Source: an uncultured Phycisphaerales bacterium
GTDB lineage: Bacteria > Planctomycetota > Phycisphaerae > Sedimentisphaerales > Anaerobacaceae
DNA length: 64,000 nt
Direction of reading: 5' to 3'
Assembly (NCBI GenBank): GCA_963718665.1
Contig: OY970359.1
Location: forward strand, 192,001-256,000
In this document: positions 13,738-63,307 of the stretch, piece after piece
Numbering within the stretch: position 1 is the first letter of the stretch
Layout: every line of letters begins with the position of its first letter
Made by a program: the position numbers and the translations under genes
The notes under the pieces: model-generated
The model's input: only the letters and a program-made list of their open reading frames with translations
Database searches by the model: none
What the model was told of the DNA's origin: nothing

Positions 13738-14541
13738 TTAAGAAGGTAAGGCGTAAACAATATCAGAGAACGATTTTTCGATATTACCTTTTGGGAAGGT
13801 TATGTGTTCATAATCAGTCCCAATGATGCCTTTTTTAAAATCGATTCCATCCTCACAAATTATGATTATGTACTTGTTGTGCGCCATCGCAAATGTCGTT
13901 TCACCAATTATCCAAGAACTATCTCCTGGAGTAACGAGACAAAGAAAAATATCTTGTGAGAAGATACGATCTTTAATTTTTTGTGGTATATCTCGCGCTT
14001 CATATCCTTCACCTTCAACGATTTGAAACCCAATTCTTCGAAGAAGCTTTTCTAATGCAGCGCTAATATTTCTTCCGCTTTCATCAAATCTATGCGCCAT
14101 AAAAATCGTTTTCTTCAGATTATATCGAGATAGATATGGAGATTTTTCAGGGGTCGGATTAGACGCCTGAAAGATTCTGCGTGACTGCTCATGTAATCCA
14201 TCGAGAAAAGTTAAATCGTCTGCCTCTATATCTAAAGTAATACTCGAAGATGTTAATCGAATACCCCACATGATTTCCTGTTTACCTTTTTTGTTTTTCC
14301 AATGAGAGTGGACATTAACTTCTTGGGGATTTGGATGTTTTCTAAGAATTTTCAAAATATCAGCGTAGTTACGACCTTGAAGCCACTGCTTATCATCCAA
14401 ATCAACGTGATACTTGTCGTTGGAACATACTCCAGTGCGCTCTTCAAATCCTGTTTCGGTAAAATAGGTCTCAATATCACAAAACGCATTTAATAAATTG
14501 AGAGTGCTTGGGTAAATTGAGTATTTTCTACCATCACGCAT
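13738..14541 (-). CDS. Protein with unknown N-terminal domain and C-terminal TIR-like nucleotide-binding domain
   Basis: IFMAHRFD...IKDRIFSQDIFLCLVT...SSWIIGETTFA matches the TIR/NDT-like pattern with catalytic Glu; AT-rich relative to neighbours. Confidence 0.7.
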   Translation of the reverse strand: MRDGRKYSIYPSTLNLLNAFCDIETYFTETGFEERTGVCSNDKYHVDLDDKQWLQGRNYADILKILRKHPNPQEVNVHSHWKNKKGKQEIMWGIRLTSSSITLDIEADDLTFLDGLHEQSRRIFQASNPTPEKSPYLSRYNLKKTIFMAHRFDESGRNISAALEKLLRRIGFQIVEGEGYEARDIPQKIKDRIFSQDIFLCLVTPGDSSWIIGETTFAMAHNKYIIIICEDGIDFKKGIIGTDYEHITFPKGNIEKSFSDIVYALPS

Positions 14542-16986: not shown

Positions 16987-17736
16987 ATGAAGTCAATCAG
17001 AGCAATTCTGGCAGTCGCGGCACTTGCGGTCGTTTTGTCGGCATCGGTTGTGATAGCGGCCCAGGGCGTTACCGGCGAATGGAATTTCACAAGCAAATTC
17101 GAGGCCATGACATCTGACGCGACAATGACAATTACCAAAAACGCGGACGGCAAATACACCGGGACGTGGTCAGCGCAATGGGGTGAAAGCACACTATCGG
17201 ATATTACGGCAGATGCCGGCAAAGTTAAATTCACCCAGACCAGCAACTTCGGCGGCCAGGATATGAAAACCTCTTACGAAGGCACTCTCGAAGGCGGAAA
17301 ACTCAAGGGCGCAGCCAAAGGCCCCTGGGGTGAGTTTACTTTTGAAGGAACTCGCGGAGAAACAAAAAACCAGGCAGACCCCCTCGTCGGCGAATGGCAA
17401 ATGAATATTATGATCCCAGCCAGAGAAATCGTTGAGAAATTGACCATAACCCAAAACGCCGATGGCAACCTCGCAGGTAAATGGGAAGGAATGCGTGGTG
17501 GAGAAAATACAATCTCCAATTTGAAATTCGCCGACGGCAAACTGACGTTTACGCGCACCAGCAAAATGGGCGGCAACGACTTTACATCGACCTTCACGGG
17601 CACTGTTACAGGCGACACGATAAAGGGCTCTTTCAGCAGTGACTTTGGCGAAAGGGAAGCAACCGCCTCGCGCGCCGCCGCTAAAATGGAAATGCCAAAG
17701 GCCGAACCAAATAAACCCCCTCCCCCCAAAAGATAG
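16987..17736 (+). CDS. Secreted protein with two tandem beta-rich repeated domains
   Basis: Signal peptide; two ~100-aa repeats (GEW...TITxNADGx.xGxW...GKxxFTxTS..GGxD); AGGAGAGG RBS. Confidence 0.8.
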   Translation: MKSIRAILAVAALAVVLSASVVIAAQGVTGEWNFTSKFEAMTSDATMTITKNADGKYTGTWSAQWGESTLSDITADAGKVKFTQTSNFGGQDMKTSYEGTLEGGKLKGAAKGPWGEFTFEGTRGETKNQADPLVGEWQMNIMIPAREIVEKLTITQNADGNLAGKWEGMRGGENTISNLKFADGKLTFTRTSKMGGNDFTSTFTGTVTGDTIKGSFSSDFGEREATASRAAAKMEMPKAEPNKPPPPKR

Positions 17737-17756
17737 GGTTATTCTTTCCGAATCCG

Positions 17757-17800
17757 TATTTAGCCCCGTCATCATCGCCGAAGGCGTGTGACGGGGTTTT
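17757..17800 (+). repeat. TTAG-tagged REP-like hairpin (family A)
   Basis: TATTTAGCCCCGTCA...TGACGGGGTTTT. Confidence 0.75.
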
Positions 17801-17830
17801 GGTATGCTGTTAATTTAGGCAATTTAATCA

Positions 17831-17862
17831 TCCCCCATCGCCAAGAGCTACGGCGGGACAGG
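17831..17862 (-). repeat. CCTGTCCCGCCGTAG repeat (family E)
   Basis: Reverse complement CCTGTCCCGCCGTAGCTCTTGGCGATGGGGGA; same ends as 19565-19600. Confidence 0.7.
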
Positions 17863-18182
17863 CACGCTCACACGCGAGGGTCAAAAAAAATCCGGCGACT
17901 CTCTAAATATTTTTTTATTCTTTACAGCAAAAGAACTTACCGATTTTGGGCATAAAAATAATATGTCGTAACTCCTTAAAACCCACGCAATTTCACCCTA
18001 TATATAGAGGGACGTTGTTCCTCTGTAGCAGCGCAGAAGCACAAAACATTTCGCCCCGGGTGGGCACGGTCGCAGGAACAGAAGTTCCATTTCGGATTTC
18101 AATTAAACCAGAAAAACTCTGTGAACTCTGTGCCCTCTGTGGCTGAAAAATTTGCTCTGTGGCAAGAAAGGGAGAGGACAGT

Positions 18183-18764
18183 ATGTTTGCACAACTAATA
18201 AAGATTCAAAATTGTCTCGACTTTATTATCACCTGTCCACTGCTCGCCTGTCGCCTGTTCCGTTATGGCTACACCTTCCGCAAAATCGACATCGGCGAAG
18301 GTTATTTCACGCTCGTCGAGCCGCGCGACTATTACCGAATCAGACGCTTCAAATGGTGTGTTTGGGGAAACGGTAGTAAATTTTACGCTGTCAGAATTAT
18401 GGTAACTGGGCCGGGAAAGACAAAGATAATGTATTTACACAGACAGTTATTGAATGCGCCCAAGGGGGTTTTGGTTGACCATAGAAATCGCGACCCATTG
18501 GATAACCGCCGAGAAAATCTGCGGTTCGCGACACAGTCAGAGAATATGCAAAACAGGGGCAAAAGAAAAAATGGCACCTCGAAATTCATCGGCGTATGGT
18601 TTGTGAAGGTAAAAGGAAAATGGGAAAGCAGAATCACCCATAAAGGCAAACTAATATACATCGGCTGCTTCGACTCCGAAATCGACGCCGCCCGCGCCTA
18701 TGACGCCGCCGCAAAAAAATTTCGCGGGGAATTCGCGAGGTTGAACTTTCCGGAAAATACTTGA
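18183..18764 (+). CDS. HNH endonuclease-AP2 DNA-binding domain protein
   Basis: YLHRQLL...VDHRNRDPLDNRRENLR...ENMQN (HNH_3 type) then SKFIGVW...KWESRI...IGCFDSEIDAARAYD (AP2); GGAGAGG RBS. Confidence 0.92.
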   Translation: MFAQLIKIQNCLDFIITCPLLACRLFRYGYTFRKIDIGEGYFTLVEPRDYYRIRRFKWCVWGNGSKFYAVRIMVTGPGKTKIMYLHRQLLNAPKGVLVDHRNRDPLDNRRENLRFATQSENMQNRGKRKNGTSKFIGVWFVKVKGKWESRITHKGKLIYIGCFDSEIDAARAYDAAAKKFRGEFARLNFPENT

Positions 18765-18802
18765 ACCCCGTCACTCGCCGGGGGCGGAGATGACAGGGCT
18801 AA
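18765..18802 (-). repeat. TTAG-tagged REP-like hairpin (family A) filling the gap between the HNH-AP2 and transposase stop codons
   Basis: Minus strand TTAGCCCTGTCATCTCCGCCCCCGGCGAGTGACGGGGTT; the TAG within TTAG is the transposase stop codon. Confidence 0.8.
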
Positions 18803-19257
18803 TTATTCTTGCGGTGATTTTTATTTACATAATTGATTTTTATTTGAAGGGTATTCGCGTCGAAACAATATCGTTTATTAAAGCCGGCCGTCCATACCCG
18901 GCCCCGCATTCCATTTTTACGAAGCGCATACACGGCACAACTCTTGTATCGCTGCACAACAATCCCGATTGGCTTGGGAATATATTCCGCCACAAGGTGA
19001 ACATGCTTTGCGCAAACCGACAGGGCATAAATTCGCTGGCCCAACTGAATCGCTTGTTGCCGGATGGCCTCTGCCGCAATCCGTCGCTGGTTAAAAGACA
19101 ACTGCACCGCGTCTTTCGTAAGCGCCTTTGAATTTGCGTCCGCCAGTTCTTCATTTGGGGGCATAATTTCCCCGTCTTTGGAATATTTGCGTTTGTCCCC
19201 TTGCAGCCAGCTTCCGTAGGTTGTCCACGTCACCATATATCCGATTGTCTTCGCCAT
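18799..19257 (-). CDS. Y1 HUH transposase, REP-associated tyrosine transposase (RAYT/TnpA-REP)-like
   Basis: YMVTWTTYGSWLQGD N-terminal motif, HUH motif KHVHLV, VWTAGF, putative catalytic Tyr in INYVNKN; 152 aa; hairpin repeats on both sides. Confidence 0.85.
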   Translation of the reverse strand: MAKTIGYMVTWTTYGSWLQGDKRKYSKDGEIMPPNEELADANSKALTKDAVQLSFNQRRIAAEAIRQQAIQLGQRIYALSVCAKHVHLVAEYIPKPIGIVVQRYKSCAVYALRKNGMRGRVWTAGFNKRYCFDANTLQIKINYVNKNHRKNN

Positions 19258-19264
19258 ATCGCAA

Positions 19265-19293
19265 ATTTTATGAAATCATATTTTCTTTTTCAA
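19265..19293 (-). promoter_or_regulatory. Sigma70-type promoter of the transposase (leaderless)
   Basis: TTGAAA-17 nt-TAAAAT-7 nt-ATG. Confidence 0.65.
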
Positions 19294-19325
19294 TTGATAT
19301 TTAACGTTCTTCCTCATCCATATAA

Positions 19326-19526
19326 TATTTAGCCCCGCCATCTCCGGCTTGCCCGAAAGGGCAAGACGAGTGGCGGGGTTAATTTGTCGTTCCCCTGCCA
19401 TCTCCGGCTTGCCCGAAAGGGCAAGACGAGTGGCGGGGTTAATTTGTCGTTCCCCTGCCATCTCCGGCTTGCCCGAAAGGGCAAGACGAGTGGCGGGGTT
19501 AATTTGTCGTTCCCCTGCCATCTCCG
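19326..19526 (+). repeat. Tandem array of three 60-bp family A hairpins plus the start of a fourth
   Basis: Unit GCCATCTCCGGCTTGCCCGAAAGGGCAAGACGAGTGGCGGGGTTAATTTGTCGTTCCCCT with exact 60-bp period; no variable spacers. Confidence 0.95.
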
Positions 19527-19714
19527 CCCGCCTGCCCTCGAATGTTTTTGTCGGGGGTGGCGAGCCTGTCCCGCCGTAGTCCCTTAGGGACGAAGGGGGA
19601 TGGCAGGGTTAATTTCGCGTGTGATGGGGTTTATCCGCCGCAGGCAGATTACACAATGAACGCCCGCATCGGGCGTTTGTATTTACCACCATACCGCCGA
19701 CCTTGTCGGCGGCG

Positions 19715-19756
19715 TATTTAGCCCCGCCATCTCCGCCCTTGGCGAGTGGCGGGGTT
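19715..19756 (+). repeat. TTAG-tagged REP-like hairpin (family A), minimal form
   Basis: TATTTAGCCCCGCCATCTCCGCCCTTGGCGAGTGGCGGGGTT. Confidence 0.85.
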
Positions 19757-19981
19757 ATTTAATCTTATGACGGGGTTTTTGAAATTGTGTGGCAGGGTTA
19801 CTTTCGCAACGCAGGCAACTCCCGTAAGGGATGCTGCAACAACGATTTTTACACAAAAAACTGGTCTGGTCCCTGACAGAAGACCCCCTGTGGGGCAGGC
19901 AGAGGAGCATCCACCTTGGGATCTGCGCTGCGCTCCGAGGGGCGGGGAAAAACGGCTGATGGCCCCATTATTCCGACAAGG

Positions 19982-21664
19982 TCATTTTGCCGCTTTAGCA
20001 GCGGTTCGTATCATTTCTGCGATCTTCCCTTGTTTGTGCTTGTATGCAATGTCCAAAGCTGTCATATCATCACGGTCTTTGATGCTAGTATTAGCCCCTG
20101 CCTTAAGTAGCATCTCTGCTACATCGGCACTTCCTAGAAAAGTAGCTATCATTAACGCGGTCTGACCAGATATATCTTTGAGATCAGGATTTGCGCCAGA
20201 TTCAAGCAGGAGTTTGCATACTTCGATATTTTTGTAACGCGCACCGTACATTAGTGGTGTAATTCCGTGTACATTCCCCATGTCTGGGTTTGCACCAGCA
20301 TCTAACAATAACCGCATAATCTGCGGATAACCCTGCGCCGCGGCCATCAAAAGAGCTGTCCAGCCAGCTTCTGCTCGTTCATTGACATCGAGGTTCTTTT
20401 GTTGCAAGATATCTCGTACTTGCTGTTCTTGACCGTGCTCAACAGCTCTGTGCAGCAAATGCTCAGCATAATGCTCAGCATATTGATCACTCATACTTTT
20501 TATTACGGCTTGATTGATTGCGAAGGATAATAATTTCCGGGGTGTCTCGTTATCCTGATCAGGGTGAGCGCTGATATACTCCTCCGCATAGCTCTCCACA
20601 AGATTGATGGGAATTGTGATTTCCCGATTGCCATCCTTAGGATTTTCAGGAATGCACAGAACTCGGAGTGCTTCCTTCTTACTATGCAGATTTTGAATCC
20701 TGACACCACGGTTCTCGGGGCTCTCATTCTTTGGATTGTCGTCTTTGTGATATATTAGGAGTTTAATATCCTCCAATGGTATGACACGGAAGTTAATTGG
20801 AGTTTGGGATTGTGTGTCCGAGAATTTCTCCCGTATTGTCTTCTGGATAGCCTGAGGATCTATGACCTTAGAATCTGCATTTATAGGAAGACCAACATTT
20901 TGGGCAGCCTGTTTGCCATATTTATGCAGAAAATAGAAATAGTCGTGGGGATCAAAGATTATTGTCTTTAACTGAACAATACGTTTACGGTAAGGAACAT
21001 GATTTCCTTCTTTATCTTGACTGAAACAAAGTGATGCTACTCGTGGTCCAAGCATGAAAAGATATGCAAAAGTAACGAGGCAAGGGCCTATTACCTGGAG
21101 TACCATTGGTGTGAAGTACCAAAGCACATAGTAGGTAACCATCAGAACAATAACTATAGGAATCGACATCTTGAACACTGCGCGGGTGGCCACAGGCACA
21201 CGGGAAAGATTAATGGCCTTGGCTTCCACCTGGGTCCGAATCATAAGCGAAGCAAATGCTACAACCGACACAAATAAGCCAATGAGAAAACCAACTGCAA
21301 TGAATATGAAATACCATGCCGGTAATACGTCTGCAAAAGAGGTGTTTGCTGCGATAAGTGAATAACTTAACCAGAGTGCCACACAGGAGAAAAGTATTGT
21401 AAGCCCAACATGTAATCGTGCCCGATATAAACGATGCGATAAATGCATCCATTCCCAAATAAGATATAATGTGGCGGCTACAAGCATCGCTGCGACAAAA
21501 CGTGAGTAAAGCTGCTGATTCTCCAAAGTTACATTGAGTATTGGTAAAGTCTGAGAAGGAGCAAGACCTAAAAAGCGCGCGAGTAAAAGAATCCCTCCGA
21601 GCACCCAGATTAACACCTCTGCTTTGTAGGGTACTGCCGACAAATCTGTCTTGATATCATCCAT
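19982..21664 (-). CDS. Multi-pass membrane protein with C-terminal ankyrin repeats
   Basis: About 6 hydrophobic helices in the first 210 aa; GWTALLMAA, GITPLMYGA, GQTALMIAT and MTALDIA ankyrin repeats. Confidence 0.88.
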   Translation of the reverse strand: MDDIKTDLSAVPYKAEVLIWVLGGILLLARFLGLAPSQTLPILNVTLENQQLYSRFVAAMLVAATLYLIWEWMHLSHRLYRARLHVGLTILFSCVALWLSYSLIAANTSFADVLPAWYFIFIAVGFLIGLFVSVVAFASLMIRTQVEAKAINLSRVPVATRAVFKMSIPIVIVLMVTYYVLWYFTPMVLQVIGPCLVTFAYLFMLGPRVASLCFSQDKEGNHVPYRKRIVQLKTIIFDPHDYFYFLHKYGKQAAQNVGLPINADSKVIDPQAIQKTIREKFSDTQSQTPINFRVIPLEDIKLLIYHKDDNPKNESPENRGVRIQNLHSKKEALRVLCIPENPKDGNREITIPINLVESYAEEYISAHPDQDNETPRKLLSFAINQAVIKSMSDQYAEHYAEHLLHRAVEHGQEQQVRDILQQKNLDVNERAEAGWTALLMAAAQGYPQIMRLLLDAGANPDMGNVHGITPLMYGARYKNIEVCKLLLESGANPDLKDISGQTALMIATFLGSADVAEMLLKAGANTSIKDRDDMTALDIAYKHKQGKIAEMIRTAAKAAK

Positions 21665-21731
21665 GTCATTTATCCACAGCTAACAATAATAATGAATAAT
21701 TAGGAAATAATTATCTACTAACGACTACTAA

Positions 21732-22244
21732 CTATCCCCATACCGCGGCGAAGGCGCGCTTCACTTTTTCGGTCTTCATAAAAATCAAAAGCAGGATGGG
21801 GTAAATAAAAGCCATCAGCGTCATGCCTGCATAGGTAACCCAAAAGTGCCACCTGCCTACGTCTTTCGGCAGATTTGCCAAACCCAAAAGAATTATAACA
21901 GCGGGATAACCACGGATAACAGTGTGCAATCCGATACTAACCCATGCGTATATAATCGAACCGCGTCTCGACCATTTTTTCATTCTTAGAAGCCCTATGC
22001 CCAGCACAATCAGCCAAATCGATAAAACAACACTAACAAGGCACGAGAGTAAGAATAATGGCATCCCTGGCATTGCGGTCTTGCCCATTAAAACCGGCGC
22101 TATTATTTTGTATAACTGCGGATAAGTGCTTATAAAAGGGTAACAGCCGAGCACAAAACCCAGCAGCCCGAACACCGCAACAGATATCGGCCTTTCAATA
22201 ACCTGCGGCGGTTCTTGCGTTTGATTGGAATCTAAATCCGACAT
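21732..22244 (-). CDS. Hypothetical four-helix membrane protein
   Basis: 170-aa ORF with four hydrophobic segments; GGAGG RBS. Confidence 0.75.
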   Translation of the reverse strand: MSDLDSNQTQEPPQVIERPISVAVFGLLGFVLGCYPFISTYPQLYKIIAPVLMGKTAMPGMPLFLLSCLVSVVLSIWLIVLGIGLLRMKKWSRRGSIIYAWVSIGLHTVIRGYPAVIILLGLANLPKDVGRWHFWVTYAGMTLMAFIYPILLLIFMKTEKVKRAFAAVWG

Positions 22245-22280
22245 AAATCGATACCTCCCAATATCGTCTTGCGTTTTAAC

Positions 22281-22336
22281 TATCCGCTATCCGCTGCCCG
22301 CTGTACGCTGTACGCTATACGCTATACGCTATACGC
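22281..22336. repeat. Heptamer tandem repeat TRNNCGC x8
   Basis: TATCCGC x2, TGCCCGC, TGTACGC x2, TATACGC x3. Confidence 0.9.
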
Positions 22337-22341
22337 TGACC

Positions 22342-29350: not shown

Positions 29351-29463
29351 CCGAAGCGGGTTCGTCGCTTCGCTCCGTGTGAGATTTGAGAAATAACAAA
29401 CCCCCACCGCGCGGGGTGGGGGCTAAATCAGAATCTGGATTCCTGCTTTCGCAGGAATGACAG
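29351..29463. repeat. Cluster of three repeat families upstream of uvrC (D, A-like, C)
   Basis: 29351-29380 inverted family D; 29398-29428 reads ATTTAGCCCCCACC...GGTGGGGGTTT on the minus strand; 29435-29463 family C. Confidence 0.8.
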
Positions 29464-37017: not shown

Positions 37018-37866
37018 ATGGCAAGAGACATACTTGACATAGGCGGGTACACTATTAAAAAACGCATCGGGGTCGGTGCGCGCACGACAATCTACCTTGC
37101 CACCGACGACTCGGACGGCAAAGAAATCGCGTTAAAACGCGTCATTCTCGAAAAGCCGGAGGACGTCCGCATCTTCGAACAAGTCGAAACTGAATTCAAA
37201 ATCGCGCGGAAAATAACCCACCCGTATATTCGCAAGTGTTACAAGCTCAAAAAAATCCGCAGCATGCTCAAGACCAAAGAGATGCTGCTTGCGATGGAAT
37301 ATTTTGACGGGCAATCGCTTGAGGAAGGGCCTGCGCTGAGCTTGCTCGACGTAATGCTCGTATTCCGAATGGTGGCGACGGGGCTTAACGCGATGCACCA
37401 GTGCGAGCTGGTTCACTGTGATATAAAGCCGAATAATATCCTGCTGAACAAAGCAGGCGCTATCAGAATCATCGACCTTGGACAGAGCTGCCGGATAGGG
37501 ACAACCAAACGGCGGATTCAGGGGACACCCGATTATATCGCCCCCGAACAGGTTCAACGCAAGCCATTAGGCCCCAAAACCGACATTTTCAACCTCGGTG
37601 CAACAATGTACTGGGCGTTGACCGGCAGAACAATCCCGACCATGATACCTAAAAAAGACCCATTCGGACTGCCCGTGCCACAGGAGCAAGTGCGCCCGCC
37701 TAATGAAATCAGGCCCCAGATACCGGCAGGCATATCCAAATTAGTGATGGATTGTGTCGAGGAAGACCCAATAAAACGGCCCACAGATATGATGGCTGTG
37801 ATATCCCGTCTGGATTTGATGATACACAGCATACTCAGCAACAAGTCAAAGACAAACTCCCAATAA
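37018..37866 (+). CDS. Hanks-type Ser/Thr protein kinase, catalytic domain only
   Basis: IGVGAR, IALK, HCDIKPNN, DLG, GTPDYIAPE, DIFNLG. Confidence 0.93.
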   Translation: MARDILDIGGYTIKKRIGVGARTTIYLATDDSDGKEIALKRVILEKPEDVRIFEQVETEFKIARKITHPYIRKCYKLKKIRSMLKTKEMLLAMEYFDGQSLEEGPALSLLDVMLVFRMVATGLNAMHQCELVHCDIKPNNILLNKAGAIRIIDLGQSCRIGTTKRRIQGTPDYIAPEQVQRKPLGPKTDIFNLGATMYWALTGRTIPTMIPKKDPFGLPVPQEQVRPPNEIRPQIPAGISKLVMDCVEEDPIKRPTDMMAVISRLDLMIHSILSNKSKTNSQ

Positions 37867-63276: not shown

Positions 63277-63307
63277 TTAATCCCGCCGGTCAGATTTGGC
63301 GGGGTTT
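63277..63307. repeat. Family A-like hairpin
   Basis: TTAATCCCGCC...GGCGGGGTTT. Confidence 0.45.

Follow-up and report, generated by a model that had tools for sequence, protein, structure and literature searches.

A RAYT-like HUH/Y1 transposase gene between TTAG-footed hairpins in an uncultured planctomycete

The genome considered here belongs to an uncultured Phycisphaerales bacterium of the phylum Planctomycetota (assembly GCA_963718665.1), and the window, that is, the whole stretch of 64,000 nucleotides that was analysed (contig OY970359.1, positions 192,001 to 256,000), contains tnpA, a gene for a 152-amino-acid HUH/Y1 transposase that stands between two inverted hairpins, each with the tetranucleotide TTAG at its foot. 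This arrangement is that of a REPtron, in which an intact HUH/Y1 gene lies between inverted hairpins of the repetitive extragenic palindrome (REP) type, and the enzyme probably binds, cuts and re-inserts these hairpins. Judged by sequence comparison, the unit belongs to a TTAG/YxxxH branch of REPtron-like Y1 elements that is real, conserved and, with class 3 represented by proxies, sister to class 3 TnpA-Y1, and the branch is apparently undescribed. An initial annotation of the window had proposed a distinct TTAG-guided system of a REP-associated tyrosine transposase (RAYT) and its REPs. A low-copy RAYT-like gene with its own conserved hairpins is indeed present, but the reading as an undescribed system is not supported, since class 3 TnpA-Y1 with non-GTAG hairpins is known from the available text of PMC6006769 and the clade of the present protein is placed as its sister.

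The transposase gene and its hairpins

The gene tnpA lies on the minus strand (18799..19257), and its product, P0001, contains WTTYGSWLQGD, H85-V-H87, W122 and Y143-x-x-x-N-H, with KHVH, WT and Tyr143 all present. The 152-residue Y1 HUH protein flanked by inverted TTAG hairpins, as first annotated, was therefore verified in its open reading frame, its motifs and its hairpins. P0001 scores below the cut-offs of the known profiles (Pfam Y1_Tnp, 18.9 bits, cut-off 23; NCBIfam RAYT, 27.4, cut-off 80; NCBIfam IS200, 21.6, cut-off 55). Its AlphaFold model (mean predicted local distance difference test score, 89.5) matches IS200/IS605 TnpA structures and the E. coli TnpA-REP structure 4ER8, the latter with the lowest root mean square deviation (3.3 Å), a ranking given no weight here, since modelling one chain may tilt the comparison towards the RAYT arrangement, a monomer. 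A homodimer prediction gave a score of 0.00 and speaks neither for nor against a dimer. The ratio of nonsynonymous to synonymous substitutions against the homologue at locus L001, which is 92% identical in amino acids, is about 0.11 by a simple count, and on this ratio tnpA is an intact gene under purifying selection. The genome of the window (G000, one contig of 2.61 Mb) has three Y1 genes, 47-51% identical, with a TTAG hairpin near each and no identical copies among them, and no tnpB was found among the neighbours of tnpA that were scanned.

The downstream hairpin (18764..18802, minus strand, foot at 18802) and the upstream hairpin (19329..19380, plus strand) are inverted to each other, and their feet point to the gene. 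In agreement with the initial annotation, tnpA terminates at the TAG within the foot at 18802, and the foot likewise gives the stop codon in 20 of 79 homologues; on the opposite strand, the tail of the same hairpin supplies or borders the TGA of a convergent HNH-AP2 endonuclease gene. Further members in the window are a family-A hairpin within an inserted segment (17745..17807, plus strand; foot 17760-17763, stem-loop 17764-17796), another family-A hairpin (19718..19756, plus strand) and one of a different TTAG subfamily (29398..29426, minus strand, foot 29426). The copies at 17760, 19329 and 19718 had been annotated with starts 3 nt too early; of two hairpins annotated as related, that at 29398 carries the TTAG tag, and that at 63277 was ruled out as a family member because it has no TTAG foot. 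Six of six hairpin segments fold better than shuffled sequences (z-scores, -3.1 to -6.8), and an Rfam scan of 17600-20000 gave nothing above the gathering scores. In two public runs of one study, one of which may be the source sample, contigs cover most of the region with an identity of about 99% or more, none of them spanning the whole array described below, and aligned public contigs revealed no empty hairpin allele.

The hairpins accompany the gene throughout its clade. A profile search gave 640 homologue clusters at E values up to 1e-10, and the counts given here for homologue loci refer to the best 80 of 373 loci. A TTAG-CC hairpin was found within 300 nt of the gene in 78/80 loci, on both sides in 58, and in none of 119 control windows 2 kb away, which bears out the co-occurrence of protein and motif for which a check had been proposed. 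The two loci without a hairpin are L040 and L072, the latter with just 13 nt of upstream DNA. Upstream, the foot points to the gene in 63 of 76 flanks, and downstream in 58 of 79. In a set of 100 different flanking hairpins, for which pairing itself was a selection criterion, the foot is almost invariant, pairs 1-3 are nearly always C-G and pairs 5-8 show all four types. Of 23 congeners, 17 were found to have a homologue, as were 50 of the 301 genomes taken as a sample of the phylum. The closest homologues carry the label Sedimentisphaerales, probably the group of the host as well. At 25 of 67 loci no more than 20 nt separate the end of the inverted upstream hairpin from the tnpA start, where its G-rich arm may, by its position, cover the ribosome-binding site; upstream of the gene at L055, a duplicated hairpin and the 5' part of tnpA are interleaved with an apparent tRNA 3' end, which suggests insertion at a tRNA site.

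Dispersed copies occur all over the genome. G000 has 20 matches to the family-A left arm and 18 to the full pattern, the genome-wide count that had been called for, and the reversed control has none. Altogether about 50 TTAG-CC hairpins of several subfamilies were retained from 62 candidates after 12 had been dropped by eye as non-members. A hairpin follows 70 of 911 TTAG-CC sites (7.7%), the overall rate being 2.3% and that of any other foot at most 3.4%; TTAG is the sole enriched foot in this genome. Within the genus, family-A copies peak in G000, which has this tnpA (18, versus 0-8 in the 23 congeners). Several clusters on this contig (887541-887720, 989739-989870, 2484100-2484220 and 1704899-1705060) are mosaics of TTAG subfamilies in the same orientation, resembling bacterial interspersed mosaic elements, and the orthologous sites in congeners often hold another TTAG subfamily. 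A cluster of several longer TTAG-CCC hairpins (1835175-1842504) represents a distinct family outside these counts. Other small repeat families without a TTAG foot, at 63277 and elsewhere, fill intergenic DNA. The idea that the enzyme also spreads the repeats of the window at large found no support, as no link to the non-TTAG families was seen, and a search of G000 for Y1 genes gave no class 1 or class 2 gene that would account for them. A search of plasmids gave no match.

Placement among the Y1 transposases

Class 3 TnpA-Y1, in the available text of Quentin et al. 2018 (PMC6006769), is defined by NHVH, W[TA], Y----Q, an extended N-terminus and hairpins with a CnGA foot, and occurs in Planctomycetes, Acidobacteria and Proteobacteria; RAYT-like REPtrons are thus not confined to the Proteobacteria, to which the initial annotation had assigned the characterised examples. 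In a tree of 65 rows, 7 of which were left ungrouped and with which quick trees agree, the TTAG clade (support 99/94) and a YxxxxQ clade (98/93) are joined at 95/82, and IS200-like class 1 (100/99) and class 2 with E. coli RayT (100/99) form separate groups. The placement that the initial annotation had asked for therefore puts P0001 outside the ordinary IS200 TnpA proteins and also outside the classical RAYTs. The foot labels of L001-L082 in this tree are TTAG by default and are backed by the locus counts, not by the tree. Class 3 is represented in it by two proxies beside class-3-type repeats, L376 and L129, and not by named class 3 proteins or a hidden Markov model; both fall in the YxxxxQ clade, sister to the TTAG clade. 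One proxy comes from a scan with the published class 3 repeat, which gave 80 loci with flanks and one Y1 gene among them; this gene scores 37.5 bits on the TTAG-clade profile versus 24.9 and 13.6 and groups in the YxxxxQ sister clade.

The TTAG clade shares with class 3 the HuH and W[TA] motifs (clade consensus, NHVH and WT; P0001, KHVH and WT), and the WTTYGxWLxGD block conserved in both the TTAG and the YxxxxQ clades corresponds, going by the published description, to the extended N-terminus. Planctomycete hosts, low copy number and flanking hairpins with dispersed copies are also common to both. The differences are the TTAG foot in place of CnGA, basal stems that are perfect over 8-9 bp and not bulged as in the class 3 descriptions available, and the absence of Y----Q. 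Of 74 evaluable members, 63 have H at Y+4, 5 have Q, 4 have N and 2 have R, and Gln stands at Y+5 in only 3. Because two defining features of class 3 are lacking, P0001 is not filed as a member of it. The Y+4 position, which we take to be a metal ligand in IS608 TnpA, is His in the TTAG clade, Gln in class 1 and Asn in class 2. Like the class 2 RAYTs of E. coli, Stenotrophomonas and Marinomonas, as presented in the available text of PMC8266576, the unit consists of one gene flanked by tagged hairpins in inverted orientation, with dispersed copies and mosaic arrays, mostly vertical inheritance, AG at foot positions 3-4 and, at one site here, candidate C|T junctions; unlike them, it forms a separate clade, lacks YxxxNP, the C-terminal extension and a GT[AG]G foot, and has tens of repeats where class 2 has hundreds. 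With TnpA of the insertion sequences IS200/IS605 (IS608, ISDra2) it has in common the fold, the HUH/Y1 chemistry, the short protein and a hairpin with a 5' tetranucleotide; it has neither YxxxQ nor near-identical multiple copies, its ends, in the window and at most homologue loci, are inverted and not on the same strand, and its clade is separate.

The foot itself varies among relatives. In 60 distant loci (L083-L142), hand-picked from the sampled genomes of the phylum, the feet before CC, where callable, are GTAG, ACAG, TCAG, AGAG, CGAG, TGAG, GAAG, CAAG, AAAG, CTAG and TTAG, and they are clade-specific, so that TTAG is one setting of a variable NNAG tag. Another YxxxH group, with NAAG feet, and a YxxxNP group also occur among the distant Planctomycetota homologues. 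In Quentin Table S1 (PMC6006769), as far as it was available, 17 of 18 class 3 rows have GAG-CC; the CnGA foot is therefore re-readable as nGAG, in register with GTAG and TTAG, and the published foot looks like an NN-AG-CC motif read one base off. The AG-CC of these nGAG-CC repeats is thus shared with the TTAG family. No TTAG-footed REP family was found in the literature searched, a search outside which lie subscription papers, ISfinder and Bertels et al. 2017. TTAG is absent from the main texts of PMC6006769, PMC8266576 and PMC3733652, none of 26 of the 48 TTAG places examined in the available part of Table S1, all class 3 rows included, is a foot, and TnpAREP and TTAG co-occur in the literature searched only where TTAG sits inside an unrelated hairpin. 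For class 3 from 2018 onwards, the same literature gave no paper besides that of Quentin et al., and it gave none on transposases with palindromes in Sedimentisphaerales.

Movement of the hairpins and of the unit

G000, G361 and G363 all have the segment 17745-17807 with its hairpin at 17760, and G366 lacks it at the orthologous site. The segment is bordered by C|T on either side (17744/17745 and 17807/17808), and the empty site reads C|T; in intergenic DNA the chance of C|T at both junctions is about 0.003, for a single site noticed after the fact. In vitro, GTAG enzymes cleave at C|T on either side of the hairpin, and A3G4 of the tag is proposed to choose the cut site (PMC8266576 and PMC3479197, available text). 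The 17760 pair is therefore the footprint expected of C|T cleavage flanking the hairpin, and it suggests that a C|T rule may also hold for TTAG hairpins. By analogy with TnpA-REP and IS200/IS605, the enzyme would bind the single-stranded hairpin, H85 and H87 would coordinate the metal, Y143 would form a 5'-phosphotyrosine, and the cut would fall at C|T on either side, selected through base pairing with A3G4. Together with short stretches of flank, the hairpin would then be re-inserted elsewhere in the genome. Within the foot, the constant AG would determine where the cut falls, the first two bases together with the stem-loop would determine which paralogue acts, and tandem and half-site arrays would arise later by slippage.

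A number of observations weigh against this account. The 29426 hairpin is also missing at the orthologous site in G366, and that pair agrees with C|T only if two bases of difference within a run of T are allowed; a filled/empty pair at 37046 has C|T at the left junction only; and at the 10 further sites compared, different repeats in the congeners stood in the way of a clean pair. Flank boundaries of paralogous repeats show no CT enrichment, CT being outside the eight commonest of 22 5' block ends. The 80 homologue loci are kin, several sharing one genome, and their counts are not independent. Six congeners in which no P0001 homologue was found all hold family-A hairpins (1-7 copies), so either the hairpins persist without the gene or the assemblies miss it, and the larger family-A count of G000 may partly be an effect of its single-contig assembly. 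Finally, P0001 itself departs from the clade norm by K before HVH and by N instead of H at Y+4. The CT profile around the repeats is unspecific (36/50 at -24 to -9, versus 23-29/50 in other windows).

The unit as a whole is mostly inherited in place, since among homologue pairs at least 80% identical the flanking genes are shared in 17 of 23 and the upstream DNA in three more. The unit of the window is an exception and, as the site comparisons have it, has changed location: in all 12 congeners examined the locus is free of Y1 genes, also in G361, which retains the 17760 hairpin and the same HNH-AP2 gene (84% identity). The REPtron at L001 adjoins a different HNH-AP2 paralogue, the orthologue of which in G000 is without a REPtron. 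Comparison of sites gave no exact ends for the relocated unit.

The convergent neighbour, an HNH-AP2 gene of 193 amino acids (18183..18764, plus strand; Pfam HNH_3 and AP2, PHROGs) between the 17760 and 18802 hairpins, was overlooked in the initial annotation. G000 has 27 such paralogues, intact-looking and about 38-60% identical to the window copy, and 21 of 23 congeners have 2-29 copies each; at the same locus, congeners have the gene, lack it or have a different paralogue. Many of these genes have a common upstream module with small leader hairpins, which in the window lies outside the REPtron (about 17860..18182, plus strand, limits approximate), and 9/10, 8/8 and 10/13 of the genome copies of its motifs lie upstream of HNH-AP2 genes. 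Gene and module look like a separate dispersed element; such an HNH-AP2 expansion in Planctomycetes was not found in the literature searched. A remnant resembling an HNH 3' end with half of the 18802 hairpin occurs 3' of another HNH-AP2 gene (G000:C1, about 2218720-2218780). In the available text of 10.1101/2020.03.09.984088, a picocyanobacterial tnpA-REP faces expanded prochlorosin genes and the authors report no strong evidence for causation; this is a precedent for a Y1 gene in tail-to-tail arrangement with a multicopy family that has expanded, and the difference lies in the enzyme, which is of subclass 2.1 and without REPs.

This neighbourhood raises the question whether REPtron and HNH-AP2 cassette act as a pair, by preferential insertion at HNH 3' ends or by mobilisation of hairpin-flanked cassettes. 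An HNH-AP2 gene lies within 3 kb in 14/80 loci, and in 10/80 its 3' end is about 260 nt or less from the REPtron; the window and L001 REPtrons adjoin two different paralogues, with an empty orthologous site elsewhere in either case; a TTAG hairpin lies within 200 nt of 4/27 HNH 3' ends versus 18/725 other gene ends, and of the 51 TTAG hairpins of G000, 17 are at most 1 kb from an HNH-AP2 gene. Outside the genus, HNH-AP2 is found in 4/6 genomes with a TTAG-clade gene and 0/11 without, these genomes being kin and not independent. A pairing is nevertheless unlikely, as 66/80 loci have no HNH-AP2 gene nearby, most HNH-AP2 genes have no close TTAG hairpin, no junction sequence is common to the borders, and unrelated repeats also gather near these genes (11-47% of several families, 86% of a leader motif and 6% of one family, versus 5% of non-coding DNA), which makes shared tolerant sites the simpler reading. 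Similarly doubtful is the bolder view of a still-mobile intermediate between IS200 and RAYT, with a Y1 enzyme of the His motif, that would move as a whole unit, dock at HNH-AP2 3' ends and contribute to the spread of the cassette, up to 29 copies of which occur per 2-3 Mb genome, as a two-component selfish system of the Sedimentisphaerales.

Another view is that the hairpins serve chiefly as terminators or regulatory elements, that slippage and gene conversion have spread them and that tnpA no longer moves them. The array is best explained by slippage, 15/50 hairpins lie within 40 nt of gene 3' ends, and hairpins occur in the congeners without a homologue found; a fixed, oriented TTAG foot beside nearly all homologues, clade-specific feet, purifying selection and the clean insertion at 17760 would be unexpected, and 13/50 hairpins lie between divergent genes, all of which makes this explanation improbable. 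Least probable, with very little chance of being right, is the reading as a conventional IS200/IS605 insertion sequence with the hairpins as its ends. The weak Pfam Y1_Tnp and PDB sequence matches to IS200-type TnpA and the relocated unit would suit it, but the IS200 profile score is far short of its cut-off, no tnpB is among the neighbours scanned and the context is mostly shared between homologue pairs, and the reading is largely refuted by the tree, the copy pattern and the orientation of the ends. A REPtron whose enzyme acts on its own TTAG hairpins thus remains the preferred reading.

Array, surroundings and significance

The upstream hairpin is the first unit of a 3 x 60-bp tandem array (19333..19512, plus strand), followed by an expanded fourth unit with nested repeat insertions and no TTAG foot (19513..19610, end approximate, plus strand). 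The array and its fourth unit are as first annotated, except that in units 2-4 GTTC and not TTAG precedes the stem. In units 2 and 3 the left arm is that of unit 4 and the body that of unit 1, a composition suggesting that the array arose by slippage or unequal exchange between two left arms lying next to each other. Interpretation as a CRISPR-like array, or as one built by the transposase, was rejected, as the units are identical, there are no spacers and units 2-4 have no foot. The L001 array is composed differently, yet the spacer at 19657..19717 (plus strand), with two unrelated small hairpins, is common to both (88-91% match). The annotated right-arm half sites at 19768 and 19790 (19768..19800, plus strand) and a third, degenerate one near 19623 were found again, and half-hairpin runs of a similar kind follow several homologues.

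The unit lies in a variable region (17737-22341) between a conserved secreted-protein gene and nrdJ. In G353 the equivalent stretch measures 135 bp; in other congeners it spans 3-8 kb and its genes differ. An ankyrin gene of this region (19982-21664) sits elsewhere in G361 and in G365, in the latter adjoining another TTAG REPtron. Farther away, an open reading frame of 267 amino acids (13738-14541, minus strand) with a weak TIR_2 match (E 0.007) is possibly a defence or signalling gene. Shiga-B and effector family matches on neighbouring genes were far below the cut-offs and were discarded.

To our knowledge, the in-vivo spread of REP repeats is still an open question, and the characterised enzymes all use GTAG. 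The TTAG clade offers a small natural enzyme (152 amino acids) with a fixed TTAG tag, and the roughly ten NNAG tags with a constant AG-CC form a natural series for the model in which A3G4 picks C|T. In addition, the window adds a candidate C|T footprint within a genome and the relocation of a whole unit in the branch proposed between IS200 elements and REPtrons, and the expansion of HNH-AP2 genes may be a more surprising lead than the REPtron itself.

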